Positions 1 through 8,989 are shown, counted from the first letter of the stretch. The stretch: 12,343 nucleotides of DNA from Candidatus Heimdallarchaeota archaeon (GCA_016839945.1 JAEOTE010000035.1:1-12343), one strand, 5' to 3'. A program made the numbers and translations. The notes: a model not told the origin generated them from the letters alone.

Positions 1-1531
1 ATATTGTTGCAATGAAATGAGAGATTAGGGATTTGATTTCAGCTATAATATTATTTCTTCTATTGTAAACTCTCCGTAATTCTCCTAAAATTTTAGTAAA
101 CCGAATCGATTCATTTCTTCTAGATATGTTTTGTAAATTTCTATGAAGTTCAGATAATTTAATTTTAGTTAAATGATTGTATCTTCTTGTTAATTTAATG
201 ATTTCAGGAGGTAATGGTATATCTTCTGAGAAAGCAATCATATGTTCACCAATTCTATTTACATCTATCCCAATAGAATGGTTTTTACTCTGAATGGAAG
301 CATATTTTATCATCCATTCATTTATTTTATGTGTAATCATAAAAACATTAGAAGATCCTTCTAGAATAACTGTTACGATTATTTTATAACTTGGAGCTTT
401 TCCACTTTGTATTCGTAAAAGCTTTATTTTAGCACCTCTCTTAAGAAATAATCTTACTTTCTTAGAGAATTTGAGTGTTCCAACGATTTGAGAATGTCCT
501 TTCAATGTGAAAATTAAATCAAAATGTCCTTGCTTTTTAACAAGATCAGTCATTATTTTGGCGTTTCCTGGACGTATTACAACATATTCGTGTTTCATTA
601 AAAGTACTAATGGGAGTAATCCTTTTTTCTTGCTAATAAATGGGGAATTTATCAAACACTGAGAATAAATATTATTCAAAATTTTTAGTACAGTCTCTTC
701 AATAAATGGAGAGAGTGCGAATACAATTATTGTTCGCAGTGGAGATAGCAATTTCCATTTGCAATCCAACTCTTCTTCAATTGCTTTACTAAGAAATTTT
801 AACGCTTTCCAATGTGATATATGTTCAATGTTAAACCACTTATCAAGATAATTTGCAATTAAATTATAATTATCTTTTAGAAAGTTCAAAGCTTGAATGA
901 AATTTTTCTGATTTGTTGAAAGCACCTTATATTTTGATTTTATTTCCTTATTTTTCAAGATATAGCATTTCTGAATAGCGTTCTTGACTTCTTTCTTTAA
1001 TAGTTTTGGAAGCTTGGAGTTAAGTTTTAAATTCGAAGAGAAAAATTTATCTGATTGTCTCCTTGTTCTTGATACAAGATTGATAATGTAAAGGCGTTTG
1101 TAATTCATCTTTTTTCTTAGAATATATTCAAATCTAGGTGATCTACCAAATATTGACCATTCAATTGCTTCATCTTTGTGTTTAATGAGAGAAGAAATCA
1201 TAATTTTTGCATTCTTTTCTAATTCAACTGCGCTTTTTGCTGCAGCATGCAGTAGAAAATATGCACTCTGCGAAACATTAGGTCCTTTATTAGTGATTTT
1301 TCTCATTTCTGTATGTATGTATTTGCTAGAAAAATTAGGATAATTTCTAGCAAAATTCATTGCAGCATTTATAGCTTTTTTATCATAGATTAGATTTTCT
1401 TGTTGCAATTGTAATCCTTTAACTCGTTGGTTAGCTTCTCTTTCATATGCTCTTTTTTCTTTCAATGTTTTACCATTGAAACTAACACCCATTCTGTAAC
1501 TTCTGAGTATTGTTTGGGATTGTGTTGTCAT
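1..1531 (-). CDS. Large TnpB/Cas12-like RuvC-family RNA-guided endonuclease, 3'-truncated by the window edge (>510 aa)
   Basis: My manual translation from ATG 1531 (preceded by SD-like GTGAT; in-frame TGA at 1558-1556) stays open to base 2. It starts MTTQSQTILRSYRMGVSF, like the TnpB N-terminal strand. It then has a long basic helical region, the WED-like strands KIKLLRIQSGKAPSYKIIVTVILE, and a RuvC-I-like motif SIGIDVNRIGEHMIAFS (Asp423, codon 265-263). A basic bridge-helix-like segment follows (LRRVYNRRNNIIAEIKSLISHFIATI). RuvC-II/III and the Zn finger would lie outside the window. Confidence 0.78.
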   Translation of the reverse strand, partial: MTTQSQTILRSYRMGVSFNGKTLKEKRAYEREANQRVKGLQLQQENLIYDKKAINAAMNFARNYPNFSSKYIHTEMRKITNKGPNVSQSAYFLLHAAAKSAVELEKNAKIMISSLIKHKDEAIEWSIFGRSPRFEYILRKKMNYKRLYIINLVSRTRRQSDKFFSSNLKLNSKLPKLLKKEVKNAIQKCYILKNKEIKSKYKVLSTNQKNFIQALNFLKDNYNLIANYLDKWFNIEHISHWKALKFLSKAIEEELDCKWKLLSPLRTIIVFALSPFIEETVLKILNNIYSQCLINSPFISKKKGLLPLVLLMKHEYVVIRPGNAKIMTDLVKKQGHFDLIFTLKGHSQIVGTLKFSKKVRLFLKRGAKIKLLRIQSGKAPSYKIIVTVILEGSSNVFMITHKINEWMIKYASIQSKNHSIGIDVNRIGEHMIAFSEDIPLPPEIIKLTRRYNHLTKIKLSELHRNLQNISRRNESIRFTKILGELRRVYNRRNNIIAEIKSLISHFIATI

Positions 1532-1539
1532 ATGATCAC

Positions 1540-1566
1540 TATAATTCAGAGCACTTCAAAATTATA
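1540..1566 (-). promoter_or_regulatory. Kink-turn hairpin immediately 5' of the SD/start codon of the nuclease gene
   Basis: Minus strand reads UAUAAU-UUU-GA-AG-UGCU-CU-GA-AUUAUA: 6-bp canonical stem, 3-nt bulge ending in U, tandem G.A/A.G, then A-U and G-C pairs and a tetraloop. It is followed directly by GUGAUCAU-AUG. Confidence 0.6.
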
Positions 1567-1618
1567 ATACGAACTTTCATATTTAAACTGAAGAAATTTC
1601 AAAGAAACCATAGAATAA

Positions 1619-1702
1619 TGCGTGAATGTTCAGAGGTGCCGTTCTTCACATTGTCTTATAGTACAGACTCGAACGGTAAAACCTTCATCATTAATTCACG
1701 CA
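1619..1702 (-). ncRNA. Structured box C/D-like (double kink-turn) RNA element
   Basis: Perfect 9-bp terminal inverted repeat (1619-1627 with 1694-1702), exact box C AUGAUGA (1691-1685) and exact box D CUGA (1633-1630). C'-like GUGAAGA (1649-1643) and D'-like UCGA (1672-1669) are also present. Nested helices: AGGU/ACCU, CCGUUC/GAACGG, GUCU/AGAC. Confidence 0.65.
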
Positions 1703-1740
1703 AATAAGAATTAGTAAACCCCTAAATTAACATTCCTTTT

Positions 1741-1760
1741 GCGATAAGTTTAATTTATAT
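1741..1760 (+). promoter_or_regulatory. Putative archaeal BRE/TATA promoter for the 1779 gene (probably leaderless)
   Basis: gcgataag followed by tttaatttatat, about 20-30 nt upstream of ATG 1779; no SD visible. Confidence 0.35.
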
Positions 1761-1778
1761 CTCTCAAATTTAGTTGTA

Positions 1779-3527
1779 ATGATAGAAAACATAACCCAAT
1801 TTTTAGACAAAAAATATGCAGCTACTTCAAAAACTCATCAGCTGTTAATGCTGTTTGAAAGATATAAAAACATGAATAAAGAGCTAGTAGAGGAATATCA
1901 AAAACAATACTCTAGGCCTACTAATCTTATTGTTTCAGCCTTATACACTGCAGATTATATTCTTACTTCCTCTGAAGTAAAGTTTGAGTTGGAAGATTCA
2001 GACAGGAGAAAAGAGATTATCGAATTTTGGTCAACATTAACTCTTCAAAATGATGAGATGTGGTATGAAATCACTAACTTAGTTGCTTTTGCATATGATT
2101 CTGCCTCCTTATTAAGAAAAAGATATTATCATCTTCTTGATAGAGGAGTGGCCAAACATATTGCAGCTTCATTAGTAGCCGATTATTATACAAGACATGT
2201 TTTGGAATTTATTTCCAGTAAAGGAGGTTTTATCCCACTATGGTGGGTAACCTATTTATTAGACACAGCACTTTGCCAGACTATTTTCTCCAAAACATTG
2301 CAGAAATGGAGTAATCGTCAAGATATCCTACTTTCAAGAGACCATGGAATTCTTGCAAATATCTTAGCAAGCCATTTTGTACCAGAAACTGAAGGTGAAC
2401 CTAATCCAGCAGTTCCTGTTCCTTACTTCAATGATTCATCAATTTTCTACTATATGATTTGGGGTGAAGAAGGAGCAAAAAAAGAAAGGTTTGATTCAAT
2501 TGTTTCTGGAATGAAAATTACTAATTTGAGCAAAGAGTTCAAAAGATGTGTCCCTCACATTGGTATAAAAGCTCCGCATATACTGAAATATCTTAGAAAC
2601 ACAGTAAGAATTTCTTCATCACCAACTCCTCTGAATTTCTTTGTTGTTCATGCTAAAACTGAAATTGGTGAAGGATGGATTGGTCTTGTTAGTCCTCTAG
2701 ATGATATTAATCTAAAAGAAATAGAAGCACTTTTACAAAAGAAATTATTAGATATGCAAAGTTTTGACAACTTCAGGAGTAATTTACCTATTATTGAAGT
2801 CTTGCAGAGAAAGAAGGAAGAACGAGAAAAAGTTGTTGAAAAAATTGAACGAGAAGAGAAAGGTTTCTTTGCAAAAATAACAAGTAAAATATCTTCATTA
2901 TTCAAGAAAAGCACAACAACTACTAAATCAGTAGCTATCGCAAAAATACAACCTATAGATACATGGTCAAAACTATTCCTTGATGAAATTCTAATGGCAA
3001 GTGTTTCGGGAGTTGACTTAGGGATAGAAACATATGATACTTACAGAGAAGATGACTTTGTGATTAGTGGTGTAATAGAATCCGAACAAAAAGAGATACA
3101 ACCCACTGTATTCTACTCTGAAAAAAGTATAGACTTTCCATCTGAATTTCTTGATCCAATTATATATTTCATAAACATTTCAAAAATATTCATATCAGCA
3201 AGTGCTAAGGGGGATATAATATCAATAATTCCGGAGGAAGCATTATACGAAGACAAAATTGATGCAAAAAGAACTCGTTTAGTTGAATTTGTTTTCGCAG
3301 AGAAATTGCTTGTAGGATTGCTTGCTGAGAAATATTCAACTGTTATGACAACTGGGGAACCTACATATCAAAGACGTTCAATCCTTAGAAAAGCAAATGA
3401 AATTCAGAAAGCTAGAAGGGTAAATAACATGATTGACGTTGGAAAGAGAACGATATCACGAGAAATAAACTGGGATACTGTTAATCAAAGTTATGAAGAA
3501 AAACCCTTGTTTTTCTTAAAGAAATAA
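1779..3527 (+). CDS. Hypothetical protein, 582 aa, with a central charged coiled-coil and an amphipathic helix
   Basis: Long ORF with host-like codon usage and no family motif that I recognise. RKKEEREKVVEKIEREEK is followed by GFFAKITSKISSLFKK. Confidence 0.85.
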   Translation: MIENITQFLDKKYAATSKTHQLLMLFERYKNMNKELVEEYQKQYSRPTNLIVSALYTADYILTSSEVKFELEDSDRRKEIIEFWSTLTLQNDEMWYEITNLVAFAYDSASLLRKRYYHLLDRGVAKHIAASLVADYYTRHVLEFISSKGGFIPLWWVTYLLDTALCQTIFSKTLQKWSNRQDILLSRDHGILANILASHFVPETEGEPNPAVPVPYFNDSSIFYYMIWGEEGAKKERFDSIVSGMKITNLSKEFKRCVPHIGIKAPHILKYLRNTVRISSSPTPLNFFVVHAKTEIGEGWIGLVSPLDDINLKEIEALLQKKLLDMQSFDNFRSNLPIIEVLQRKKEEREKVVEKIEREEKGFFAKITSKISSLFKKSTTTTKSVAIAKIQPIDTWSKLFLDEILMASVSGVDLGIETYDTYREDDFVISGVIESEQKEIQPTVFYSEKSIDFPSEFLDPIIYFINISKIFISASAKGDIISIIPEEALYEDKIDAKRTRLVEFVFAEKLLVGLLAEKYSTVMTTGEPTYQRRSILRKANEIQKARRVNNMIDVGKRTISREINWDTVNQSYEEKPLFFLKK

Positions 3528-4466: not shown

Positions 4467-6053
4467 CTAAAAGGTTGATTTGAAATCTAAGTCTAATTCA
4501 TCACTATTAGTCAGTATTTCTATTTGCTGGAATTTTTGTGGAGATTTCATTAAATCATATATTAATTGTACATCAAAATCTTCTACATGTTTCTCTGATT
4601 CTAATGATTTTGGCAAAATGTGCCCCAAAATCTGATATCCAGAGAATATTTTCCTTTTTTTCTTCAAATCCTTTTCACTCATTGTGGTACCCACAAAGAG
4701 AAGTGAAATGATCTCATCTTCGAAATTTAATATATTAATGCAAAAAATCTCAAGATACTCTAATATGTTTTCTCTGCTATTTTGATACGTAAAATCCGAT
4801 ATAGTTTTTTTAACCACACACAAATCTTTGAGAATTACTAATAGATTTTCTTCTAAAAATTGCTTACTTATGGCAAATGCAGCATCTGAATCATTTACAG
4901 CATTTCTATAAAGTATATTTGTATTCTTCTCCCCAAGAAGAGATGGGTGAGTGGTTTTTATACTTAGATTCTTCATTCGTTGTGATGTTTGAGAAGAAGT
5001 TTCTAAATCATATATCATAGACATACCGATTAGATTTGATAGAGTATAAGCATGTCCTTTTCTTACTTTTCTATGTGCTTCATCACTTAGGTATTTAGTA
5101 AATTTTAGAGCTTTTTCAAAATACATCAAAGTACCAAGAGACTCATTGTATCCAAGGATGCCATTTGCTATTGCCGAATAGTATAAAGCCTTCTTGTTAT
5201 TATTCAGGTTTTCAATATAAGAATCAATTTCTATTAAGGAAGTTTCAATCAGTTTATCTGATAGCTTTAGGAAACTTGTAAGAATAGATATTCTTCTAGT
5301 TGCTTCATAATCATTTTTCAAAATTTTAACTGCTCTCAAAACGATATTTACTCCCTTCAATATTGTTTCATGGTTTTTGGCAACAGCAACTAATCCAGGA
5401 TTATCAGAAAAGAGTTGAAGAATGTAATCTGCTGGCATTAACACTTTATTATCTGGATATGGATTATTTGATATGATTTCAATCATATTCTTACAAGAAT
5501 CAAATGCTTTGTTTACCTCTTTTTTGAAGAAATGTATAAGTCCCATATTGACTTCACAAAAAACTAAATCTTCATGAAAATCATTTTGTGCAGCTATTTC
5601 TTTGGATTTTAGAAGATATTCCATTGCTTTTTCTTTTCCAATAGTTCGGTGAATAATAAAGAGGAGATTTAATGCTCTAACCTTTAAATATGGGTCATCC
5701 TCACTAACAGCAATTGCATGTGCTTTGTTTACTGCTTTTTTAGCACCTTCAAAATCATTAGCAAGTAGAAATGAATCACTTAACCTTAGATAAAATGTAG
5801 AATGGTTTTTTTTGGAAACTTGGGGAAGTAAAGCCTTGACAGTTCTAAGTATTATCATGCCTTCTTTCCTTTTTTCAGAACTAAACAAGATCTTGGTTTC
5901 TCGTAGCATAAACTCAACAAAATTATCTTTTGAAAGATTTTTATCTAATTTTAAATGAGCTAGAATGTTCTGAAACTGTTTTCGATCCTTGATTCTGAGT
6001 GAGAATTCTTTTGGATCTTGTGACTTAAGGAAATTATGCAATGCAACACTCAT
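4467..6053 (-). CDS. TPR-like alpha-solenoid protein with an uncharacterised C-terminal alpha/beta region, 528 aa
   Basis: TPR-like units FYLRLSDSFLLANDFEGAKKAVNKA, CEVNMGLIHFFKKEVNKAFDSC and YYSAIANGILGYNESLGTLMYFEKA. Convergent with the upstream TPR gene, with an 8-nt gap between the stops. Confidence 0.75.
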   Translation of the reverse strand: MSVALHNFLKSQDPKEFSLRIKDRKQFQNILAHLKLDKNLSKDNFVEFMLRETKILFSSEKRKEGMIILRTVKALLPQVSKKNHSTFYLRLSDSFLLANDFEGAKKAVNKAHAIAVSEDDPYLKVRALNLLFIIHRTIGKEKAMEYLLKSKEIAAQNDFHEDLVFCEVNMGLIHFFKKEVNKAFDSCKNMIEIISNNPYPDNKVLMPADYILQLFSDNPGLVAVAKNHETILKGVNIVLRAVKILKNDYEATRRISILTSFLKLSDKLIETSLIEIDSYIENLNNNKKALYYSAIANGILGYNESLGTLMYFEKALKFTKYLSDEAHRKVRKGHAYTLSNLIGMSMIYDLETSSQTSQRMKNLSIKTTHPSLLGEKNTNILYRNAVNDSDAAFAISKQFLEENLLVILKDLCVVKKTISDFTYQNSRENILEYLEIFCINILNFEDEIISLLFVGTTMSEKDLKKKRKIFSGYQILGHILPKSLESEKHVEDFDVQLIYDLMKSPQKFQQIEILTNSDELDLDFKSTF

Positions 6054-7698: not shown

Positions 7699-8682
7699 TT
7701 AGTTTTCATTTTCAACAATTGATATCTCAAACATTGGTTGTTGTTTTTCTGACCAAAATGTCTGGTTGTCAATCATATATTTTATGAGATAACTGGTTAA
7801 ATCAGATTCTGATAAATCAGATCCTTTTACACTTCTTAAACCATGTATTTCTTTAACAAATTCTGTTAAAAGTCGCATCAAGAGATTTGTTCCTCTAAAT
7901 TCATCACATTTTGTAGTTATTAACCAGCAAGAAGTATGATCATCTGCTGCCATGACAATTTGTCTTCCTTTAAATCGCATATATTCAAGAATTGACTCCT
8001 TTCCTGATGCGAATTTATATCTGATTACAGGTAAAATCCCTTTATCTATTATTATTGTATCTGGTGTTCTTATTCTAGCTTCAATTATACCTTCATCTGT
8101 TTTGATGTATGCAACAAAATAGTCTACAGAGATTCCAGCTGAAATTAAATTTGTAATAATTGCAGTGGCTAACCAGTCGACAGTTTTATTGATGTTCTTA
8201 CCTGTAATAGGGGAAATAGCGAAAGATTCTATGTTATGTTCTTTTGATGTGAGTTGAAAGGTTTTTTGAATGGATTTTACTACTTTGGAATCAACAGGTG
8301 TGTCCCAAGTATTGATGAGAACTAGAATTGGAGATTGATGCTTTATCCATTTAAGAGCTCTAACAAACCATTGCTTGGATTCATCTAACTTATTTTCCTC
8401 TGTTGCATCAACTACATAAATCAAAGCATCAGATCGAGTGATATAACTTTCCCATAAAGATTTTCTGAATGCTTCTTTCCCACCCAGATCTGTGAGACCA
8501 AGTCTTAGTCCATCAATTTTTACTACCTCGTGGTTTATGCCAAAGGTAGTATAAGTCTCTGAAATTTCTTCTCGAAGAATTTTGTTCACTATTGAAGTTT
8601 TTCCTACACCATCTAGACCAGCTATAGAGACCATTAAATCTTTGGTTGAAAGTTTCCAATCCTTATAGCCATCTGATCCCAT
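7699..8682 (-). CDS. Arf/Sar-like small GTPase with degenerate G3-G5 motifs, fused to a longin-like C-terminal domain
   Basis: G1 GLDGVGKT, G2 TTFG, G3 DLGGK, Arf-like FRKSLWESY and LIYVVDA, G4 NTWD, G5 SPI. The ~140-aa tail has a beta-beta-alpha-beta-beta-beta-alpha-alpha pattern. I prefer ATG 8682 (GAAGGA SD upstream) to the track's GTG 8694. Confidence 0.85.
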   Translation of the reverse strand: MGSDGYKDWKLSTKDLMVSIAGLDGVGKTSIVNKILREEISETYTTFGINHEVVKIDGLRLGLTDLGGKEAFRKSLWESYITRSDALIYVVDATEENKLDESKQWFVRALKWIKHQSPILVLINTWDTPVDSKVVKSIQKTFQLTSKEHNIESFAISPITGKNINKTVDWLATAIITNLISAGISVDYFVAYIKTDEGIIEARIRTPDTIIIDKGILPVIRYKFASGKESILEYMRFKGRQIVMAADDHTSCWLITTKCDEFRGTNLLMRLLTEFVKEIHGLRSVKGSDLSESDLTSYLIKYMIDNQTFWSEKQQPMFEISIVENEN

Positions 8683-8989
8683 CAAATCCTTCACTTCTTC
8701 GACTCATTTACACTTAAATGATTTATGTCGCCAAAAAAACCCCTAATATATTTATCTCATGGAACTTATAAAAGTATTCTGAATATATTGTCCGCAATTC
8801 CAGATTCACTTAACGAAATTAATATCTTGGAAATGATGTTCTCATTTTATTAATATCACCTAAAATTATGTTTTTGTTATCTTTTTCTCCTCTTTCAGAT
8901 TTTTCATAAAACCACAACAATTATATATCAATGATTGGAAAATGATTTTGAAATTTACACTCAAATATTACTAGAGTGAGGTTAAAAAA

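Follow-up and report, generated by a model that had tools for sequence, protein, structure and literature searches.

What is encoded by the reading frame that runs off the beginning of a contig from Candidatus Heimdallarchaeota archaeon (GCA_016839945.1, JAEOTE010000035.1:1-12343), and could it belong to one of the known systems of RNA-guided nucleases? The window, that is, the whole stretch of 12,343 nucleotides analysed here, comprises the first 12343 bases of contig C1 of an assembly with 3.0 Mb, 186 contigs and 88% completeness. TnpB is the ancestor of Cas12 as well as a compact scaffold for genome editing, and an initial annotation of the window described the frame as a TnpB-like protein with a much expanded REC region. 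Based on profile searches, structure models and the comparison of related loci, we consider it likely that the gene represents the first 510 of about 640 codons of a TnpB-family (OMEGA) RNA-guided nuclease, from an IS607-derived lineage of Heimdall-group Asgard archaea. Rather than a new system, we see in it an unusual form of a known one, and the family, which has probably been catalogued already, is best filed beside the IS607-type TnpB. It is called a variant, not a textbook TnpB, because the Asp-Glu-Asp triad is not kept in its relatives and no transposase gene is adjacent.

The gene is cut by the end of the assembly and not by biology, because the window begins at the start of contig C1. 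A database search retrieved a full-length orthologue of the window protein (P0005, 640 aa, 86% identity), and the parts of the gene, together with the element ahead of it, are as follows.

2..1531, minus strand: tnpB-like gene, codons 1-510 of about 640, an open frame with its ATG at 1531 that runs off the end of the sequence
1478..1513, minus strand: first WED beta-strand, residues 7-18, from the AlphaFold (AF2) model of the orthologue; TnpB and Cas12f align structurally from model residue 6-8 onwards
632..1477, minus strand: expanded all-helical REC lobe, residues 19-300, from a model of the window's own sequence
353..610, minus strand: remaining WED beta-strands, residues 308-393, from the secondary structure of the model
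2..277, minus strand: N-terminal part of the RuvC domain, residues 419-510, from the invariance of Asp423 and the alignment to RuvC-I of ISFba1 TnpB
271-257, minus strand: GIDVN, residues 421-425, from the window translation, with the Asp423 codon at 265-263
1580..1587, minus strand: TATA-box-like element TTTAAATA, 48 nt before the ATG, a putative promoter element

How firmly can the fold be assigned? For the 510-aa fragment alone, NCBIfam returned nothing useful, and a single paralogue sequence compared with the PDB sequences gave only noise, so that a profile was required. The profile of 21 relatives retrieved CnCas12f1 (E 1.2e-7), ISFba1 TnpB (E 1.8e-6) and further Cas12f chains among the PDB sequences. 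In its alignment, D423 corresponds to the RuvC-I Asp (Asp191 of ISFba1 TnpB, within G-I-D-L-G), E522 to the RuvC-II Glu of I-E-D-L, H578 to the first Cys of the CxxC zinc knuckle and H607 to the Asp of N-A-D-Y-N-A-A. The paralogues match the Cas12f1-like TNB domain, once above the cut-off (PF07282 on paralogue P0003, 31.9 bits, cut-off 26.3). The AF2 model of the orthologue, which was built on the alignment of the 21 relatives, has a pLDDT (predicted local distance difference test score) of 84.4; with this model, Foldseek placed CnCas12f1 at the top (E 6.5e-10), and VIA-align gave Z 13.4 for AsCas12f, 12.6 for ISDra2 TnpB and 11.2 for Fanzor2 (9b0l). The alignment to ISDra2 TnpB covers 346 of its 362 residues across residues 6-624 of the model; therefore the whole small TnpB is contained in the orthologue, and the extra residues, about 270 in number, constitute an insertion that chiefly occupies 19-300. 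The order WED-REC-RuvC with an inserted zinc-ribbon TNB domain is found in the orthologue model, while the window itself spans just WED, REC and the start of RuvC. Consequently, the proposed TnpB/Cas12f fold is borne out by the profile search, the orthologue model, Foldseek and VIA-align, and a RuvC fold is indeed predicted around GIDVN.

The other expectations on the shape of the protein can be judged from the same models. The RuvC-I motif GIDVN with its Asp at residue 423 is confirmed by the window translation. It is no chance match: it falls on a beta-strand at 419-424 of the model, Asp423 is invariant in the 21 relatives within G-x-D-x-N-R, and it aligns to the RuvC-I Asp of ISFba1 TnpB. 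The Asp is shifted from position 191 to 423 because of an all-helical REC lobe of about 280 residues, about 230 more than in TnpBs of 400 aa. In the model of the window's own sequence, the stretch 19-300 is a compact body of 12 helices (pLDDT 94.5) with 13.8% Lys. It lies between the WED strands at 7-18 and 308-393, in agreement with the more than 200 additional helical and Lys-rich residues anticipated there by the initial annotation. Its estimate of 650-700 aa for the complete protein also comes near the actual length, since the orthologue has 640 aa and the paralogues and relatives 626-656 aa. The REC lobe folded alone found no convincing counterpart among 48,161 PDB representatives (best Z 6.5). 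The best matches, some of them winged-helix proteins, were weak and partial and were discarded, a Z of 6.5 being below the noise for helical domains.

Where do the relatives of this protein occur? Four paralogues with 34-45% identity are present in the same genome, on contigs 47, 39, 154 and 104, and three of the paralogues are intact with 642-652 aa. An assembly-wide search for the missing C-terminal part, with residues 500-640 of the orthologue, returned just these four. Judging from the relatives, the lost 3' part (RuvC-II, zinc ribbon, RuvC-III, omegaRNA and guide) would lie beyond the contig end. The database search yielded 17 proteins of 587-655 aa, and those with a named source are from Heimdallarchaeota and are labelled just 'transposase' or 'zinc ribbon domain-containing protein'. 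In an exhaustive profile search the family amounted to 527 clusters (50% identity), of which 96 lay below E 1e-30, and the scan of species-representative genomes gave 78 loci, with several copies per genome; their titles name Heimdallarchaeota or an unnamed archaeon, except for one Thorarchaeota metagenome-assembled genome (MAG). All source-named relatives are Asgard archaea. Within the order to which the window belongs, the family was found in 24 of the 24 other genomes of the same genus and in 0 of 16 genomes of other genera (E 1e-20, window-family query), and none of the genomes of its genus holds an orthologue of the window protein above 47% identity.

In addition, some giant relatives of 900-1784 aa (P0043, P0051, P0072, P0073, P0120, P0121, P0125 and P0158, loci L107-L110) share an N-x-H-x-N-A/S-A motif and come from Lokiarchaeota, Odinarchaeota and Hodarchaeales MAGs. 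These solo genes encode TnpB-like proteins of Cas12 size, and the three inspected have no cas1 neighbours. A link to Fanzor through these giants was considered and rejected, since P0125 and P0121 gave no match among the PDB sequences and all named relatives are from Asgard archaea.

Then, does the family descend from a transposon or from a CRISPR system? The tree divides the Heimdall family into clade 1 (23 rows), which holds the window protein, its orthologue and the paralogue P0002, and clade 2 (44 rows), which holds three paralogues from the same genome. Located 43-96 nt upstream of the clade-2 gene is an open reading frame (ORF) of 248 aa with Resolvase and MerR domains, which scores 170.9 bits on NF033518 (IS607 transposase, cut-off 110). 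This tnpA is full-length at about 15 clade-2 loci and reduced to a C-terminal stump at about 10, and it is absent from all 23 clade-1 rows and from the window, so that no serine-recombinase tnpA adjoins the window copy as it would in an IS607 element. The family is an IS607-linked TnpB lineage and is not CRISPR-like.

The loss of tnpA raises the question whether the window gene is only a decaying IS607 remnant without present function. The genome has no intact IS607 tnpA and retains just a 57-residue remnant on contig 39, broken family copies occur elsewhere (L062, L073, L082 and L088), and the window lineage sits on a long branch. However, the frame is open for 510 codons in DNA of 29% G+C, and the full-length orthologue at 86% identity speaks for its maintenance. 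The window protein retains 95 of the 117 positions that are highly conserved in the family, D423 included, and the orthologue has kept E522, H607 and the zinc ligands. The ratio of nonsynonymous to synonymous substitution rates is 0.10-0.18 in ten pairs of tnpA-less members, and three clade-2 pairs fall in the same range. Moreover, the putative promoter block is conserved, as a T-rich tract and TTTAAATA/TTTATAAAT precede the start codon at nearly all family loci of both clades. A remnant is therefore judged very unlikely.

The active site of the family is peculiar in its third residue. Asp423 is accompanied by a nearly invariant E522, which is the RuvC-II Glu expected in the continuation and is present in the orthologue and paralogues. 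Instead of the RuvC-III Asp that had likewise been expected, a nearly invariant His is found: the block N-T-H-x-N-A-A-x-N-I is shared by the orthologue, the paralogues and almost all relatives, and the N-x-H-x-N-A-A position is His in 45 of 53 scorable members of a broader set. Since the window is cut before RuvC-II, the departure from Asp-Glu-Asp at His607 was established on the relatives. The residue four upstream of the RuvC-III His is Asn in most members and Asp in a few. As for the anticipated CxxC zinc finger, a zinc ribbon is present in the orthologue and paralogues, but in the form HxxC...CxxC (ligands H578, C581, C597 and C600), the first ligand being His and not Cys. E522 and H578 are separated by 56 residues, which is the canonical prokaryotic spacing.

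Could the Asp-to-His change have abolished cleavage, so that the solo copies are domesticated RNA-guided DNA binders with a fixed guide, for example repressors like TldR or Cas12m? The missing RuvC-III Asp would fit such a role, and so would the transposase-free, conserved loci under purifying selection in the clade of the window, as at tRNA-Cys for 9 of 9 clade-1A loci; many immobilised and exapted TnpBs have also been reported in a 2023 census of TnpB (PMC10691335). However, clade 2 has the same His together with an intact IS607 tnpA and up to 10 matches per genome, and a transposon-borne TnpB is expected to need cleavage. D423 and E522 stay invariant or nearly so, whereas the known dead derivatives have in most cases lost the C-terminus or several catalytic residues (PMC10691335). 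As for TldR-type features, the loci are fixed and under purifying selection, and only one of three catalytic residues is changed, a change common to the transposase-linked copies. The same census describes a branch, RIIIr-4, with a conserved RuvC-III Asp-to-His change, no zinc finger and a link to a MazE-like gene, names the archaeal branches Ser-6 and RIIIr-6 with altered RuvC-III, and reads the conserved, mostly archaeal Asp-to-His branches as probably active (PMC10691335). Weighing both sides, we regard a pure DNA binder as unlikely, and continue with the TnpB-family nuclease as the preferred explanation.

If the window gene belongs with the OMEGA nucleases, a guide RNA would be expected at the 3' end of the gene, and such an RNA can be recognized in the relatives. 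Although the proteins are just 35-45% identical, their downstream regions share 36-42 nt at 95-100% identity, in a block that starts within the last codons and stops abruptly 60-90 nt past them. The stop codon lies at three differing positions within this block; therefore the constraint acts on the nucleic acid. The predicted fold of the RNA, about 85-100 nt in length, has a G+C-rich hairpin, one or two more hairpins and a 7-bp pseudoknot that joins the loop of the first hairpin to the final bases ahead of the variable flank. Across the 42 sequences of clade 2, 98.3% of the cells pair, three of the seven pseudoknot pairs show compensatory changes, and none of 500 shuffles reaches this. In the clade of the window (18 sequences), the paired share is 94.7% of the cells, compared with 38-50% when the partners are slid, and compensatory changes are seen at 10 pairs. 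A structured RNA with a sharp boundary to a variable flank is thus found at the 3' end of the gene in 42 clade-2 and 18 clade-1 loci, and judged from sequence the relatives show the layout of an omegaRNA whose guide lies in the flank next to it. Rfam searched on four family loci assigned the omegaRNA to no family. It was also observed that the last 25 codons or so of all family loci are dual coding (e.g., L038:7860-7890), the C-terminal P-S-x-H-x-R-G being the translated first hairpin.

By analogy with the characterised TnpBs, the protein, with its plan of WED strand, REC lobe, WED barrel and RuvC domain with inserted zinc ribbon, would bind an omegaRNA that is made from the 3' end of the gene itself. 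Guide function would fall to the 16-20 nt of flanking sequence after the scaffold, and the complex would cut matching DNA beside a short motif. The data show the fold, the motifs and the IS607 link of the sister clade, as well as the RNA structure and the selection in relatives, while RNA binding, the nuclease activity of an Asp-Glu-His site and the missing 3' end of the window copy are predicted. The clade of the window copy has lost the IS607 tnpA, so that the copy cannot transpose by itself; its relatives in the clade occupy fixed places beside small-RNA genes and are maintained by purifying selection.

The initial annotation had also suggested that the protein may belong to or neighbour the CRISPR-like TnpB families of Asgard archaea. 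Could it be a type V CRISPR effector, or an Asgard aCas1-associated TnpB with a CRISPR-like hypervariable region? The size in the Cas12f range and the Cas12f chains as best structural matches would be compatible with this, and Asgard aCas1-TnpB groups do exist (PMC10691335). In these groups (Cas1H-Asgard-1/2), the tnpB gene is followed by a hypervariable region and then GTTCACTCA (PMC10691335). However, the motifs GTTCACTCA and GTTCACTGC are absent downstream of all 70 family loci examined. Up to the contig end, the window contains no tandem repeats and no CRISPR array, and Cas1 (PF01867) has no match in the 88%-complete genome though it was detected in control genomes, while a highly diverged aCas1 could escape this Pfam model. 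In addition, the guide scaffold is of the omegaRNA type and directly joined to the ORF, and the three giant relatives inspected stand apart from cas1. The CRISPR-like suggestion is consequently not sustained, and we consider it extremely improbable.

Several points weigh against the assignment to an active TnpB-family nuclease and should be stated together. The 510-aa fragment alone has no match in Pfam, and the NCBIfam models for TnpB and Cas12f match the paralogues weakly, the TnpB model staying far under its cut-off. The window protein departs from the family at 22 of the 117 conserved positions, the most of any member (others 1-12), and the branch of its lineage amounts to about 0.95 changes per site. 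The last 130 codons or so and the omegaRNA are missing from the window copy and did not turn up in the rest of the assembly, so that its RuvC-II, RuvC-III, zinc ribbon and RNA are predicted from the relatives. Losing the RuvC-III Asp could mean losing cleavage, and no bench test of a His-type TnpB was found in the searched literature.

What does the DNA ahead of the gene tell us about how this copy is kept? Next to the tnpB-like gene lies a second feature.

1620..1701, minus strand: C/D-box small RNA (sRNA) gene beside tnpB, with C box 1691-1685, D box 1633-1630 and a terminal stem of 1701-1694 with 1627-1620

It also has internal box-like elements. Rfam on window 1-2200 gave a weak C/D-box match as its sole result, and the matches for this sRNA are weak overall. 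One copy of the sRNA is present in 24 of the 25 genus genomes, and in most of these it has no tnpB beside it; its boxes are conserved and its apical stem covaries. Its two putative guide segments can pair in part with each other (CCGUUC / GAACGG), an uncommon property among C/D sRNAs. We considered this upstream kink-turn RNA as the guide of the nuclease and rejected it, because it is this single-copy C/D-box sRNA, which stands nearly always without an adjacent tnpB in the 24 genomes that have it. The segment 1620-1701 is a host C/D-box sRNA gene and is probably the insertion site of tnpB.

A family member adjoins this sRNA in one further genome only, G014 (L117, C117:12700-16200, ORF 728-2689), with the order sRNA, promoter, 653-aa tnpB and omegaRNA. 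Its right flank is a second, diverged 3' half of the sRNA, which runs into the flank of the empty site of G003 (L118, G003:C10). Since the DNA after the omegaRNA is made of the sRNA 3' half and the ancestral flank, the G014 element lies inside the sRNA gene with an intact sRNA on its left. It was also noted that the end of G007:C137 and the start of G007:C136 (L119) both break in the same sRNA, near the G014 insertion point, which could point to a repeat there or to a filled/empty polymorphism of the site.

Other tnpA-less copies adjoin tRNA genes, as listed below.

L004, L014, L019, L021-L025: beside tRNA-Cys
L011, L012, L017: beside tRNA-Asn, with the tRNA upstream and its 3' end repeated after the omegaRNA
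L028: beside tRNA-Ser, with a 15-nt direct repeat in both flanks
L027, L029: further copies beside tRNA genes, with an antisense tRNA 3' half abutting the promoter in L029

In clade 1A, the tRNA-Cys is antisense and 45-100 nt away at all nine loci, and since the nine copies are in different genomes, the locus has been passed on vertically. Partial tRNA repeats occur at the omegaRNA-side flank of the tnpA-less loci. The 20 nt after the scaffold match nearby DNA at 13-17 of 20 positions, and the similarity of guide to tRNA by itself is weak evidence, because such values are often only at or just over the shuffled maximum. These layouts suggest that the clade-1 elements occupy small-RNA genes and leave them intact.

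Then, how could such copies spread without a transposase? One speculative idea, which we hold to be rather unlikely, is that the tnpA-less clade, including the window copy, consists of RNA-guided homing elements within small-RNA genes (tRNA-Asn, tRNA-Ser, tRNA-Cys, a tRNA-like gene and the C/D-box sRNA). The left side of the element would replace the interrupted part of the gene, so that the host gene would stay whole, and the displaced original part next to the omegaRNA would act as the guide. Cleavage of uninterrupted alleles by TnpB would let recombination copy the element into them without a transposase, which would make it an RNA-guided counterpart of the homing endonucleases borne by introns or inteins. 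The G014 layout, the flank repeats at tRNA-Asn and tRNA-Ser and the purifying selection on tnpA-less copies speak for this idea.

The rest of the window consists of host genes, which encode a tetratricopeptide repeat (TPR) protein, histidyl-tRNA synthetase, an Arf-family GTPase, a thermosome subunit and a flavodiiron-type protein. The Arf-family GTPase (7699-8694, minus strand, 331 aa, PF00025, E 1.3e-26) has a C-terminal extension of about 150 residues and is a typical Asgard 'eukaryotic signature' gene. Two ORFs have no Pfam match, one of 582 aa at 1779-3527 on the plus strand, divergent from the tnpB gene, and one of 528 aa at 4467-6053 on the minus strand. On the contig of the orthologue, a divergent gene lies upstream at the same 248-nt spacing as the ORF 1779-3527 does in the window.

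The interest of the family lies in three departures joined in one protein, namely a REC lobe enlarged to over double the normal size, a conserved Asp-Glu-His site and an HCCC zinc ribbon, combined with an omegaRNA of very small size. Should the His site cut DNA, the RuvC chemistry of the superfamily would be wider than known and a protein-heavy, RNA-light editor design would be at hand; should it not, nature would have provided in this family a large collection of RNA-guided DNA binders. Copies without tnpA that have long been kept beside tRNA and sRNA genes are a concrete case for the persistence of TnpB without transposition.

How does the window family compare with the known systems? Fanzor2, which is of IS607 descent, resembles it as an enlarged TnpB-like protein, and the structural match to the orthologue model is no better than that of many Cas12 types. 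In Fanzors, the TnpB homologues of eukaryotes and giant viruses, the RuvC-II Glu has moved close to the zinc finger, about six residues ahead of it (PMC13565253), whereas in the window family E522 lies 56 residues upstream of H578 and the hosts are Asgard archaea. With the RIIIr-4 branch of the census (PMC10691335), the family shares the RuvC-III Asp-to-His change, but it keeps the zinc ribbon and is IS607-linked. Cas12f (CnCas12f1, 8hr5; AsCas12f, 8dzj) gives the best profile and structural matches, and the RuvC-III block resembles the N-A-D-x-N form that is typical of Cas12f and derived TnpBs; unlike Cas12f, the family has no CRISPR array, tracrRNA (trans-activating CRISPR RNA) locus or adaptation genes, and it has a single flank-derived guide and His for Asp. 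From the IS607 TnpBs with omegaRNA, or right-end element RNA (reRNA), it differs in its RuvC-III His, its His as first zinc ligand, an omegaRNA outside Rfam and the lack of tnpA in the clade of the window, and it has about 640 aa rather than about 400 because of the REC lobe of about 280 residues. However, it shares with them (ISFba1, 8iaz; also ISDra2 of IS200/605, 8h1j) the WED-REC-RuvC-zinc-ribbon order, the canonical RuvC-I Asp and RuvC-II Glu, a pseudoknotted guide scaffold that overlaps the 3' end of the ORF and ends at a variable flank, and a sister clade preceded by the IS607 serine-recombinase tnpA.

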